In this document: piece after piece, positions 31,918 through 37,245 of the stretch
Position numbering within the stretch: the stretch's first letter is position 1
Layout: the number at the start of each line of letters is the position of its first letter
NCBI GenBank assembly: GCA_018267545.1
Contig: JAFDYG010000465.1
Location: 15,556-79,555 of the forward strand
DNA: 64,000 nucleotides
Source: Bacteroidota bacterium
GTDB lineage: Bacteria > Bacteroidota > Bacteroidia > Chitinophagales > Chitinophagaceae
Direction: 5' to 3'
Translations under genes and position numbers: made by a program
Notes under the pieces: model-generated
Databases searched by the model: none
What the model was told of the DNA's origin: nothing
What the model saw: only the letters and a program-made list of their open reading frames with translations

Positions 31918-34900
31918 ATGCCCATTTCGAAACTGACGCTGAATGGCCAGGTACAGGCCCCCGTGACAACGGAAGATCCGAATCACCCCGACCTGATACT
32001 CGAAAAAACCATCCTGGTCGCCCCGCCAACGCGCGGCGAAGACAACCAGGTACAGATACAGATGGGCGAGGACAACCTCGTCGAATTGATCTATGAGGAT
32101 AATACGACCTGGCTCTGCACCGCCGATGCACTCGAGGAACTATATCCCGGTCAGCTCAAGCAGCAGCGCGGAGCCGACGAAGGAATACAACTCCCGCTGA
32201 CCCTCGACGCCCCCCCATCGGAGCGGGGGCTCGTCCAGCAGATCGCCCTCAAAGTAGCCCAGCTCTTTACCAAAAAGGCCGCCGCCGTGGGTATGGCTGA
32301 ACTGGCCAAGACACTCGAAGAGAAACACCTCGGTACGATGAGGGGCGTGTTTCGCGTTTCATCGACCTTCGAGCTTTCCCCCTTCGTGGCAACGGACTCC
32401 GACAGCAAGTCCGGGCCCTCCCTCCTGTTCATCCACGGCACCAACTCCTCCTCCACCGGCTCCTTTGCAGAGCTCGTAGGCTCCGACCTCTGGTCCTATG
32501 CCACCAATACCTATAACAAGAATAATATCCTCGCCTTCCAGCACGAGACACTGACCAAGAGCCCCCTGCAGAACGCTGCAGAACTGATAGCACAGCTGCC
32601 TGCCGGAGCGGACCTTCATGTCATCACCCACTCCCGCGGCGGACTGGTCGGAGAAGTCCTCGCCCGCTTCAGCGGCGCCGCCGGCGTCGGCTTCTCCGAG
32701 ATGGAGATCGCCTACCTAAAAAAGGAAAACCGCGACGACGACGTAAAATACATCCGCCAGCTCCAGGACGCCTACAAGCAAAAGCAATTTAAAGTCAGCC
32801 GCTTCATCCGCGTAGCCTGCCCTACCGCCGGCACCACGATCCTCTCCAAACGGCTCGACCACTTCTTCAATATCGGCCTCAACCTCATCGGAGCGACCAC
32901 CGGTATCGCGGTGAATCCCATTTATATCGCCACGAAAAACCTCCTAGTCGCCGCAATCGACCAAAAGAACGACCCGAAAGTCCTGCCCGGTCTGGAAGCC
33001 ATGAACCCCGATTCCCCCTTCATCACGGTGCTCAACAGCCAGAAGATCGACGATACGGAGATCGACGACACCACCCCCATCCTGGTCATCTCCGGAAATT
33101 GTAAGGCCAAGGTCAACTTCAAGGCGCTGCTGATCCTGACGGAACGACTTTTCTTCGCCGAGAAAAACGACCTCGTGGTCAATACCCAATCGATGTACGA
33201 GGGCTCGAAGCGCCACAGCAAGCTGCGATTCTTCTTCGACGAAGGTACCGACGTGGACCACTTCAGCTACTTCAAGAATAAAAAGACCAATAGCGCGATC
33301 AAGCTGGCGCTGGAATCACCCGACCAGGTGATGACCAACGGATTCACCGAGTTCTCCCGCGGCGGGTCCGCAGCACGGGGCGCCCTCGCAGGTCCCGGCG
33401 ATTATTTCAAGAACGCCGCCATGGGCAAACGCCCGATCGTCGTGCTGATACCCGGTATCATGGGCTCCTGTCTCACCCAAAACTTTGTACCCATTTGGGT
33501 CCGATACGTCCAGATCCTCCAGGGCGACCTCTTCCGTCTCGATCTGACGAAGGAGGACGTTAAGGCCACAGCCATCGTAAAAGCCTCGTATGAGCGGCTG
33601 GGTGAGACGCTCAGCGCCGACTACGACGTGGTCACGTTCCCCTACGACTGGCGCCTCTCCCCCAAAGACGCCGCAGGCCAGCTGGAAACCGAGCTCAAAC
33701 GGCTCATGGACCTGAACCAACCGATCAAGATCGTCGCGCATTCGCTCGGCGGCGTGGTCGTCCGCGACCTCATGGTCTTCTATGCAGAAACCTGGAAGCG
33801 TCTCAACGCCACGGATAACTTCCGTCTTTTGTTCCTCGGATCACCGCTGATGGGCTCCTTCCGGATCGTCAACGTTCTTTTCGGCGAAGACGATATCATA
33901 AAAAAACTAAGCAAGCTAGACCTTCTGCATACCAAGCGCGAGCTGCTAGCCATGTTCGCCAGGTTCCCGGGTATACTCGGTCTTTTACCGCTAACGTCAG
34001 ACCCCAACACCGATAATTTTGGCATCGAAGGCACCTGGGCCCAGCTGGCAAACGCCACGGATAACAAAGACTGGCCCATACCCAAGGCGAACGCCGGTCT
34101 GGACCAATTCAACCAATACCAACAAGCCGTCGTCAAGGCCATGCCCGGTCTCGACCTCAAGAACGCGGTCTATGTCGCAGGCCGCGACAAGGAGACGCCG
34201 CTCGGCTACCGCATCGATACCAGGAAAGACAACCAGAAGGAGCTCGTATTCCTCAGCACCGCCGAAGGAGACGCGAGCGTGACCTGGGATTCGGGTATCC
34301 CCAAGAGCCTGATTGAAAAGAACGCGGTATACTACGTCAACCATAGTCACGGGGATCTCGCCAATTCCCCCGATATGTTCAGCGGGATAAAAGAAATCCT
34401 GGAAAGGGGTAAGACCACCCTATTCACCAATATCCGCCCGCTGGTCCGCGGCGACCAACGTGTCTTCCGCAAGCCGCAGACGGCCGACTTCGATCTGTCC
34501 GAGGACGGCGTCAACAAAACCCTCATGGGTCTCTCCGACGAAAAGCCCATCGAGAGCAGCCAGTTGCCGGTACGCGTCAGCATCGCGCACGGCGACCTCA
34601 AGTACGCCTCCTATCCAGTCCTGGCCGGGCATTTCAAAGGAGACAGCATCCTCTATGCGGAAAAGCGCATCGACCAAATTCTAAACGGACAGCTCGAAGA
34701 ACGGAACCGCCTCGGCATCTATCCCGGCGACTTCGGAACCTGCGAGATCATCTTCACGCCCGTCGAGGACGAATTCCAGGGCGCCGTCATCGTCGGCATC
34801 GGCGAGCAGGACGGTCTGACCCCCTTCGACCTGGCCAAAACGATCGAACAAGCCGCGTCCAAATACCTGGTCCTCGTCAACGCCAAGAACAAATCGGCGA

Positions 34901-37245: not shown

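Follow-up and report, generated by a model that had tools for sequence, protein, structure and literature searches.

Kaur et al. 2020 (eLife, PMC7159879) and 2021 (eLife, PMC8195603) described bacterial conflict systems computationally: in VMAP systems a caspase-like domain never occurs without an α/β-hydrolase, autoproteolysis by the caspase is predicted to deploy the effectors, and the α/β-hydrolase effectors are assigned to membrane-lipid hydrolysis. We analysed a 64,000-nucleotide stretch of DNA from a Bacteroidota bacterium of the Chitinophagaceae (GenBank assembly GCA_018267545.1, contig JAFDYG010000465.1, positions 15,556 to 79,555 of the forward strand; hereafter the window), in which one gene encodes a protein of 1775 residues that joins two α/β-hydrolases, a module resembling the N-terminal domain of leucyl aminopeptidase (LAP; M17N-like, macro fold), a CHAT caspase-like protease and a helical TPR-S tail. 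The protein is probably a bacterial self-destruct or immune device. The reading that we favour, at slightly better than even chances, is a stand-alone cytoplasmic conflict protein of the abortive-infection type, a single chain in which the core controls the lipase cargo.

The systems of Kaur, Burroughs, Iyer and Aravind resemble this protein in the pairing of a caspase with an α/β-hydrolase and in a constant module with variable effectors, and their neighbourhoods likewise contain TPR-S, pYEATS, TIR and STAND domains. They differ in being multi-gene and NTP-dependent (MoxR-vWA-VMAP, GAP1, EACC1), whereas the window protein has neither a conserved partner nor an NTPase. The two fused hydrolases are particular to the window protein, and term searches of either paper returned no passage that mentions the M17N-like module. 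Nor do the loci point to membership of the VMAP/MoxR-vWA group, since a MoxR-like AAA operon lies directly upstream in only three homologous loci (L022, L068 and L080; partial in L065), and in the window the MoxR-like AAA gene is on the opposite strand at a distance of over 6 kb, with no vWA domain detected. The initial annotation, made from the letters of the window, knew of no studied example. For the two-hydrolase/M17N-like/CHAT/TPR-S architecture this still holds, as our literature search found no publication on it, but the principle was anticipated in Kaur et al. 2020: with the obligatory caspase/α/β-hydrolase pairing noted there and the predicted autoproteolysis, the idea of self-activation is not new in principle.

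The best structural match of the C-terminal half is Csx29 of the type III-E Craspase (Foldseek E 5e-7, identity ~13%). Csx29 likewise carries TPR-type repeats and CHAT in one chain, with the protease latent until a trigger arrives, but its repeats are N-terminal, not C-terminal as in the window protein, and it has no lipase. Cas7-11/gRAMP, Csx30 and Csx31 were not found among the genes scanned beside the open reading frame (ORF), where CRISPR arrays were not searched for; the flanks are DUF4062-NACHT, PtuA/PtuB, NurA-like and HerA genes, and the protein is thus not placed in type III-E. SAVED-CHAT, a protease of CBASS and type III CRISPR systems and also a structural match, has a sensor N-terminal to CHAT and is activated by ligand-driven oligomerisation. 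Its SAVED sensor binds cyclic oligoadenylate and its substrate is a separate protease, whereas the window protein has the M17N/macro-fold module, fused lipases and no cyclase or Cas10 partner. Bacterial gasdermin systems are alike in logic, a caspase-like protease with a repeat/sensor region unleashing a membrane destroyer that kills the cell; their effector is a separate pore-forming protein, while here the phospholipase-like hydrolases are fused and there is no gasdermin gene.

A precedent for the self-release proposed below is found in MARTX and large clostridial toxins, whose clan-CD cysteine protease domains are fused to effectors including an α/β-hydrolase phospholipase and cut inter-domain linkers after binding a small molecule. 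These toxins differ in being secreted, activated by eukaryotic inositol hexakisphosphate (InsP6) and devoid of CHAT or TPR-S, and RTX-type repeats are absent from the window protein. In its PYDWR and AHSLG motifs and in how Ser, Asp and His are spaced, the second hydrolase agrees with LCAT and PLA2G15, its best fold matches, and Tle4 and bacterial family-I lipases show an additional fold likeness to the N-terminal half; LCAT, PLA2G15 and Tle4 stand alone and are secreted or lysosomal, whereas hydrolase 2 is predicted to work in the cytoplasm inside a 1775-residue regulator. The window protein is best filed among the caspase-like protease-controlled effector systems of bacterial conflict, and not under any named defence system.

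Domain architecture and catalytic residues

The ORF is complete, from an ATG start through 1775 codons to a stop, and the start call is right, because M1 and the N-terminal motif are kept among homologs. From the N- to the C-terminus the order is a beta-rich domain, a DUF7379 hydrolase, an LCAT/LPLA2-like hydrolase, the LAP-N (macro-fold) module, CHAT and the TPR-S tail (Table 1). Two AlphaFold2 models were built, each from a 64-sequence alignment. The N-half model (residues 1-880; predicted local distance difference test score (pLDDT) 82, predicted template modelling score (pTM) 0.83) consists of the beta-rich domain and two α/β-hydrolase folds, and the C-half model (residues 866-1775; pLDDT 84, pTM 0.74) of a three-layer α/β module, a small bridge, the CHAT fold and ~320 helical residues. 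Pfam, the AlphaFold2 domain parse and Foldseek bore out every domain call of the initial annotation, and the residues that it named, S239, S609, H1302 and C1341/C1342, are encoded where it placed them (codons starting at 32632, 33742, 35821 and 35938/35941). The N-terminal beta-rich domain has no family match in Pfam. A scan of the protein for a hydrophobic stretch of signal-peptide or transmembrane-helix length found none; judged from its sequence, the protein is cytoplasmic.

That there are two separate serine-hydrolase domains, as first proposed, was confirmed. The first matches DUF7379 (PF24096) at residues 169-250 and in two more stretches (E 1e-34, 120.2 bits against a cutoff of 33), and its nucleophile elbow is THSRGG with S239. 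The second matches LCAT (PF02450) at residues 567-734 (E 1e-9, 38.2 bits against a cutoff of 21) and, by sequence profile in the PDB, LCAT/PLA2G15 (E 2e-5); it carries PYDWR at residues 575-579 and AHSLGG with S609, so that both elbows (T-H-S-R-G and A-H-S-L-G) are [TA]xSxG variants of GxSxG. In Foldseek the best PDB matches of the N-half model were lysosomal phospholipase A2 (LPLA2) and LCAT (E 3e-9), followed by Tle4, a phospholipase of the type VI secretion system (T6SS), family-I bacterial lipases and PlaB. CHAT (PF12770) was matched at residues 1162-1435 over profile positions 3-289 of 289 (E 5e-26, 92.2 bits against a cutoff of 24), and the C-half model aligned with Csx29 (TPR-CHAT), separase SPD-APD and SAVED-CHAT over ~500 columns (Foldseek, probability 1.0).

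Conservation was examined in 115 full-length homologs and in 97 distant 50%-cluster representatives at 31-43% identity (98 sequences with the window protein, aligned by MAFFT with fast settings). The catalytic serines and the His/Cys dyad are near-invariant in both sets. In the distant set the counts are S239 97/98, D418 98/98 and H448 98/98 for hydrolase 1, and S609 97/98, D785 98/98 and H811 97/98 for hydrolase 2, whose D577-W578-R579 is invariant; H1302-G1303 is kept in all 98 sequences. Conservation of the catalytic residues of all three enzymes indicates that all three predicted activities are under selection. Column entropy is 1.2-1.3 in the enzymatic domains, the most conserved, against 2.0-2.2 in the N-terminal domain and the TPR-S tail, the most variable. 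The two adjacent cysteines lie as first described, but C1341, which had been singled out for mutation, is not the strictly conserved one: it is present in 93/98 and replaced by S, A or T in five diverse homologs, whereas C1342 is invariant (98/98 and 101/101). This makes C1342 the stronger candidate for the nucleophile, and a C1341A mutation alone may leave the protease active.

The helical tail of ~330 residues proposed initially is seen in the model as an all-helical region (residues ~1455-1775). Its TPR-S (PF20308) match at residues 1514-1638 scored 26.3 bits, just under the cutoff of 27.6, and a precomputed TPR-S match is present for most homologs. The tail is the most variable region; beyond residue ~1640 it is unmatched in some clades, and in several Chitinophaga-type loci the match stops near residue 1610-1640. 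A homotypic kinship between this tail and the TPR-S regions of adjacent TIR-like/TPR-S genes was considered and dropped, as BLAST found no similarity.

This is a large, conserved family that is still uncharacterised: at least 942 relatives came up in a protein search, and a scan with one genome per species gave at least 592 encoding genomes, mostly of Bacteroidota. Nearly all of the best 120 relatives are 1750-1900 residues long with the same architecture at 43-69% identity, from Bacteroidota genera such as Puia, Chitinophaga, Terrimonas, Flavobacterium and Chryseolinea. A phage origin was rejected, since no relative was found in IMG/VR.

A constant core, proposed to be regulatory, and its cargo

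Comparison of relatives shows that the C-terminal 900 residues are a constant core, which would be regulatory, and the N-terminal 870 residues an exchangeable cargo of predicted effectors. A HMMER search with the window core (M17N-like/CHAT/TPR-S) gave 1442 clusters of 50% identity at E<=1e-30. Among the best 150 representatives, ~110 have both hydrolases, ~20 have one (N-terminal domain with the first hydrolase at ~1400 residues, or the second at ~1100-1340) and ~20 have none. The N-terminal slot can thus be empty or hold pYEATS, one hydrolase, two hydrolases, or pYEATS with two hydrolases; pYEATS stands at the N-terminus of some members (P0014, P0224; also listed for P0096), in a manner reminiscent of the homotypic adaptor ('EAD') coupling put forward by Kaur et al. 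By tblastn against plasmids, full-length proteobacterial homologs at ~30% identity were found, and the Azotobacter plasmid copy is beside type I restriction-modification (R-M) and Fic genes, a recombinase and insertion sequence elements. A Rhizobium protein of 936 residues consists only of M17N-like, CHAT and TPR-S parts and is flanked by two TIR-nSTAND1-WD40 genes. Proteins of DUF7379+CHAT and LCAT+M17N+CHAT composition adjoin SIR2, ABC-ATPase, HNH or endonuclease genes. In locus L085, an LCAT/M17N/CHAT gene is followed directly by a SIR2-pYEATS gene.

When the Rhizobium protein was used as the query, a sister family of core-only proteins (920-975 residues) came to light, and here the cargo is encoded separately. 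In L088 and L092, an LCAT gene, a C25/caspase-like gene and a PLD gene lie ahead of the core, all on one strand, and the core begins at the equivalent of residue 885 of the window protein; the C25/caspase-like protein (490 residues, motifs SHG ... ACFAGG) is a second caspase-like peptidase beside the CHAT core. In four other core-only loci (cores of ~935-965 residues), a GH108/PG_binding_3 muramidase without a signal peptide and a ~250-residue protein follow within ~15-40 bp. As the split loci pair the core with LCAT and PLD or with the GH108 muramidase, the predicted cargo is always an envelope-degrading enzyme. The ~250-residue protein (157 residues in L089; one hydrophobic stretch seen in L091) gave no Pfam or PADLOC match when tested for gasdermin identity; it may be a holin-like or pore-forming partner that the protease activates. 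TIR-type genes adjoin all four muramidase loci examined, one of which also has a divergent patatin gene. The DUF7379+LCAT gene followed by a core gene in L090 had been considered as a Rosetta stone for splitting; BLAST placed the break inside LCAT, with a frameshift-like tail, and the locus was set aside as a frameshifted full-length gene. In L083 (Qingshengfaniella), an LCAT/PGAP1-like hydrolase is fused to a trypsin-like peptidase in one protein of 840 residues, a second, independent hydrolase-peptidase fusion.

We propose that at rest the protein would be autoinhibited, with the core keeping the phospholipase-like effectors silent. The fast-evolving TPR-S tail, binding a protein or a peptide, and/or the conserved putative pocket of the macro-fold module would sense a trigger, and the H1302/C1342 dyad would then become active, probably via oligomerisation as in caspases and SAVED-CHAT. 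The protease would free or unmask the lipases; the likeliest site for its cut is the connector (residues 836-884) or its vicinity, in cis or between chains, and the lipases would hydrolyse inner-membrane phospholipids, so that the cell dies before the invader finishes its cycle. What the data show are the identities of the domains, their intact catalytic residues, a constant core with variable cargo, the split operons and the accessory, mobile behaviour of the gene; we infer the trigger, the cutting, the lipid that is attacked and the defence phenotype. Self-cleavage is plausible, and within this scheme we give cleavage-dependent activation of the lipases about an even chance.

If the scheme is right, sensor, protease and membrane-destroying enzymes are united in one chain, and there would be a large family of 'caspase-controlled lysis' proteins, with more than 1000 clusters, common in soil and aquatic Bacteroidota and Proteobacteria. 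They would be a lipolytic, enzyme-based equivalent of the gasdermin pathway and a single-gene model for CHAT latency and effector unleashing, and the caspase/α/β-hydrolase pairing noted computationally in 2020 would become testable with eight point mutants.

Several observations weigh against this proposal. The first part of the connector is conserved (RPxxRGxQKxFRxPxxxDFDLSPEG), whereas residues 871-884 are disordered and variable; the conserved inter-domain cleavage site for which a search had been suggested was not found in this linker. R844 and R487 are partly conserved in the distant homologs (64/98 and 89/98), and the conserved stretch 841-870 might equally be a docking element. Activation without any cleavage fits the data equally well, and either the TPR-S tail or the macro-fold module may be the sensor. 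Neither the window protein nor a core-only relative matches any PADLOC v2 or NCBIfam model. Recognisable conflict genes lie within 10 kb in ~27-33% of loci, a raw share with no background rate, and many copies sit among housekeeping genes.

In an alternative without self-processing, the protein would sense its trigger and oligomerise, and lipases and protease would each hit targets in the cell, membrane lipids in the one case and host or phage proteins in the other; CHAT would then be an additional weapon, or a relay acting on other substrates, and not the activator of the lipases. The lack of a conserved cleavage motif in the flexible linker suits such parallel action. For CHAT proteases already known, such as Craspase and SAVED-CHAT, the substrates are separate proteins. 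Core-only relatives without fused cargo retain the dyad, and where the genes are split the lipase forms a polypeptide of its own, which suits parallel action as well. The repeated tight tie of the core to envelope-lytic enzymes, by fusion or operon, suggests control instead, and we regard parallel action as unlikely, though deserving of attention.

The macro-fold module

The initial call of a PepA-N/macro-like module proved firm at the level of fold and weak at the level of sequence. Foldseek matched the module to the LAP N-domains 6ome, 1gyt and 7y1s over ~190 columns (E 3e-4) and, at the fold level over ~190 columns, to the macro domains MacroD2, PARP14 and TTHA0132. The Peptidase_M17_N (PF02789) match of the window protein (residues 906-982, E 0.037, 14.4-18.2 bits) is under the cutoff of 23.4, and such weak matches occur in 15 of 20 family members; several relatives have precomputed PF02789 matches, and in the Rhizobium relative L085 the homologous module reaches 29.8 bits, above the cutoff. 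A canonical macro domain (one that binds or hydrolyses ADP-ribose, judged by profile similarity and the NAAN, GGG and GIYG motifs) was rejected at the sequence level, as Pfam Macro matched none of the 20 members and hhalign gave a probability of 0.3% in an approximate comparison with three macro domains. Separase and Csx29 align over 500-550 columns, which would put the module in the place of their pseudo-protease domain.

G904-H905, D909, E915, Y935-P936, G955, G960, G1014-G1015 and W1105-W1106 hardly vary at all among 100 core-only proteins. Of the family with lipases, the 97 distant representatives keep H905, D909 and E915 almost without exception, and the other residues of the cluster are invariant in a 24-sequence alignment, G1015 varying in the distant set; one Azotobacter homolog lacks H905, D909 and E915. 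In the model the cluster sits at C-terminal strand ends and helix N-termini, the topology of the macro-domain ligand crevice, and it may form a pocket or an interface, a putative ligand site. These invariant residues in an aminopeptidase-N-like module are a lead toward a new ligand-sensing domain.

Such a site raises the alternative of a signal-gated effector, in which the module acts as a small-molecule receptor, for instance for an ADP-ribose derivative made by TIR-type enzymes whose genes lie close by or elsewhere, and when bound switches on CHAT, whereupon the lipases are released; the protein would be the executioner arm of a Thoeris-like pathway, with the TPR-S tail serving autoinhibition or substrate docking. 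The order of sensor then CHAT is that of SAVED-CHAT, the near-invariant G904-H905, D909 and E915 and the two Gly loops lie at the crevice topology, and TIR-type genes stand beside the four GH108-type loci and directly upstream in the window. Iterative searches placed a TIR, TIR-like or DUF4062 gene no more than 10 kb away in 14 of the 42 loci with complete flanks, a raw count with no background rate; the distance is at most 3 kb in 12 and at most 1 kb in 7. We nevertheless consider signal gating of this kind distinctly unlikely: two thirds of the loci have no TIR-type neighbour, the neighbours that do occur may merely mirror the clustering of defence islands, the module has no sequence similarity to canonical macro domains, and the Azotobacter homolog lacks H905, D909 and E915. 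To our knowledge, LAP N-domains do not bind nucleotides. The corresponding assignment of the module as a receptor for a nucleotide second messenger from TIR, TIR-like/TPR-S or DUF4062 proteins is just as doubtful. Were it correct, the core superfamily of 1442 clusters would be new signal-gated caspase-like executioners freeing lipases, PLD and muramidase, and a bacterial pathway would run from TIR to caspase to lysis.

Genomic setting

ORFs were called in 80 homologous loci and the window, 1032 proteins were clustered, and Pfam and PADLOC were run on the 138 immediately flanking genes. No conserved partner gene emerged, the commonest Pfam family occurring 7 times among these 138 genes, and PADLOC recognised few of them, with TIR effectors the commonest (5). 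The expectation that homologs would lie next to STAND NTPases was not borne out, as none of the other 80 loci has an equivalent of the NACHT neighbour in the window. The role in conflict systems suggested by the initial annotation loses this support and keeps that of the variable effector slot, the split lipase genes, the plasmids and defence islands and the TIR-type neighbours. Recurring neighbours of conflict type are TIR-like/TPR-S genes (13/81 loci), TIR_2, nSTAND1 and a trio of DUF4062, MoxR-like and large-protein genes.

Table 1. Positions of the protein's domains and of the genes discussed. Window coordinates unless a locus is named.
Feature	Position	Strand	Basis or remark
Complete ORF, 1775 residues	31918..37245	+	ORF call; without signal peptide or transmembrane segment
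N-terminal beta-rich domain, residues 1-125	31918..32292	+	AlphaFold secondary structure; no Pfam match; entropy 2.03
α/β-hydrolase 1 (DUF7379), residues ~166-470; predicted triad S239 (nt 32632-32634)/D418/H448	32413..33327	+	Pfam, conservation, lipase/Tle4-like fold
α/β-hydrolase 2 (LCAT/LPLA2-like), residues ~506-835; PYDWR; predicted triad S609 (nt 33742-33744)/D785/H811	33433..34422	+	Pfam, PDB profile, Foldseek, conservation
Connector between lipase block and core, residues 836-884	34423..34569	+	Conserved first part; disordered, variable 871-884
LAP-N-like (macro-fold) module, residues 885-1090; G904-H905, D909, E915, Gly loops G955/G960, G1014-G1015	34570..35187	+	Pfam, Foldseek, conservation
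Bridge, residues 1091-1180; three strands and helices; invariant W1105-W1106	35188..35457	+	Model, conservation
CHAT caspase-like protease, residues ~1181-1436; H1302 (nt 35821-35823), C1341-C1342 (nt 35938-35943)	35458..36225	+	Pfam, Foldseek, conservation
All-helical TPR-S tail, residues 1437-1775	36226..37242	+	Pfam, model, entropy
rpsP	241-792	-	
ffh	927-2246	-	
Operon from DUF4062 to patatin-like gene	15962-25660	-	
TIR-like gene, then DUF4062-NACHT-HEAT gene	28225-31840	-	
HerA-like to PtuB block	37242-43482	-	
Muramidase and small protein downstream of core	L082 10842-12285; L086 10839-12284; L089 10898-11997; L091 10917-12346		
LCAT, C25/caspase-like, PLD and core genes	L088 3339-10922; L092 2873-10460		
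SIR2-pYEATS gene	L085 11240-12235		
Hydrolase-peptidase fusion, Qingshengfaniella	L083 7839-10361		

The gaps around the gene are usually 100-500 bp, and where it is inserted differs from genus to genus: seven Chitinophagaceae (L014, L038, L041, L043, L044, L058, L060) have it exactly between ffh and rpsP-rimM-dinB, Algoriphagus between fba/amylase and pfk, and Aequorivita beside propionyl-CoA carboxylase genes. In the window genome, ffh is directly adjacent to rpsP, the empty form of the ffh/rpsP site, and the gene lies 30 kb away. Its guanine-cytosine (GC) content is 0.58-0.59 (window 32001-36000) against 0.45-0.53 in the flanks, which is consistent with horizontal acquisition. The gene thus behaves as an accessory and mobile one, with shifting loci, plasmid copies and atypical GC, and the window copy stands between the DUF4062-NACHT gene and a Septu/HerA block; both speak for the conflict role. 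A non-immune function, in regulated lipid or protein turnover or in developmental cell death of soil Bacteroidota with conflict neighbours by coincidence, would explain housekeeping flanks that are stable within genera (ffh/rpsP, fba-amylase/pfk, the biotin carboxylase neighbourhood) and the strong full-length conservation at 43-69% identity across families. We hold it to be very unlikely, because the location shifts among related genera, copies occur on plasmids, the GC is atypical for the window, the effector slot is variable, the adaptor domains pYEATS and TPR-S are of conflict type, and TIR, STAND, R-M and Septu genes are neighbours.

The initial annotation had considered that the homologs might turn up in secretion or toxin loci; judged by the 138 flanking genes, they lie outside such loci. 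None of the 25 commonest Pfam families in these genes is a secretion family, and the sole HlyD-named matches equal the biotin-lipoyl matches in number. An exported antibacterial toxin, delivering the lipases into competitors as T6SS or type IX secretion system (T9SS) cargo or in a MARTX-like way, is accordingly the least probable explanation and a highly improbable one. The T6SS phospholipase Tle4 is among the fold matches, and MARTX toxins do combine a clan-CD autoprocessing protease with an α/β-hydrolase effector. On the other side, the protein has no signal peptide or transmembrane segment, its C-terminus is helical and not the beta-sandwich of a T9SS C-terminal domain, no conserved neighbour offers itself as an immunity protein, and a search of IMG/VR found no relative.

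Upstream of the window gene, at a gap of 77 bp, is the divergent DUF4062-NACHT-HEAT gene (1004 residues). The TIR-like gene of the same strand (192 residues) clusters with TIR-like/TPR-S proteins adjoining homologs in 12 other loci. Downstream and convergent is a block that encodes, in the order of Table 1, a HerA-like protein (642 residues), a weakly NurA-like protein (450), PtuA (699, with an N-terminal PtuB-like region) and the HNH protein PtuB (291). These four genes overlap or abut, the 3' end of PtuB overlapping that of the CHAT-lipase gene by 4 bp, and the Septu pair apparently shares one operon with the HerA/NurA pair.

Farther upstream in the window, an operon encodes a DUF4062 protein (444 residues), a MoxR-like AAA+ protein (321), a 1533-residue protein with no Pfam match and a patatin-like phospholipase (927). 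In the three loci with a MoxR-like operon named at the outset, a DUF4062/MoxR-like/1533-residue-type trio lies directly upstream of the homolog on the same strand, in L022 at a gap of 9 bp; this trio may be a linked conflict system.

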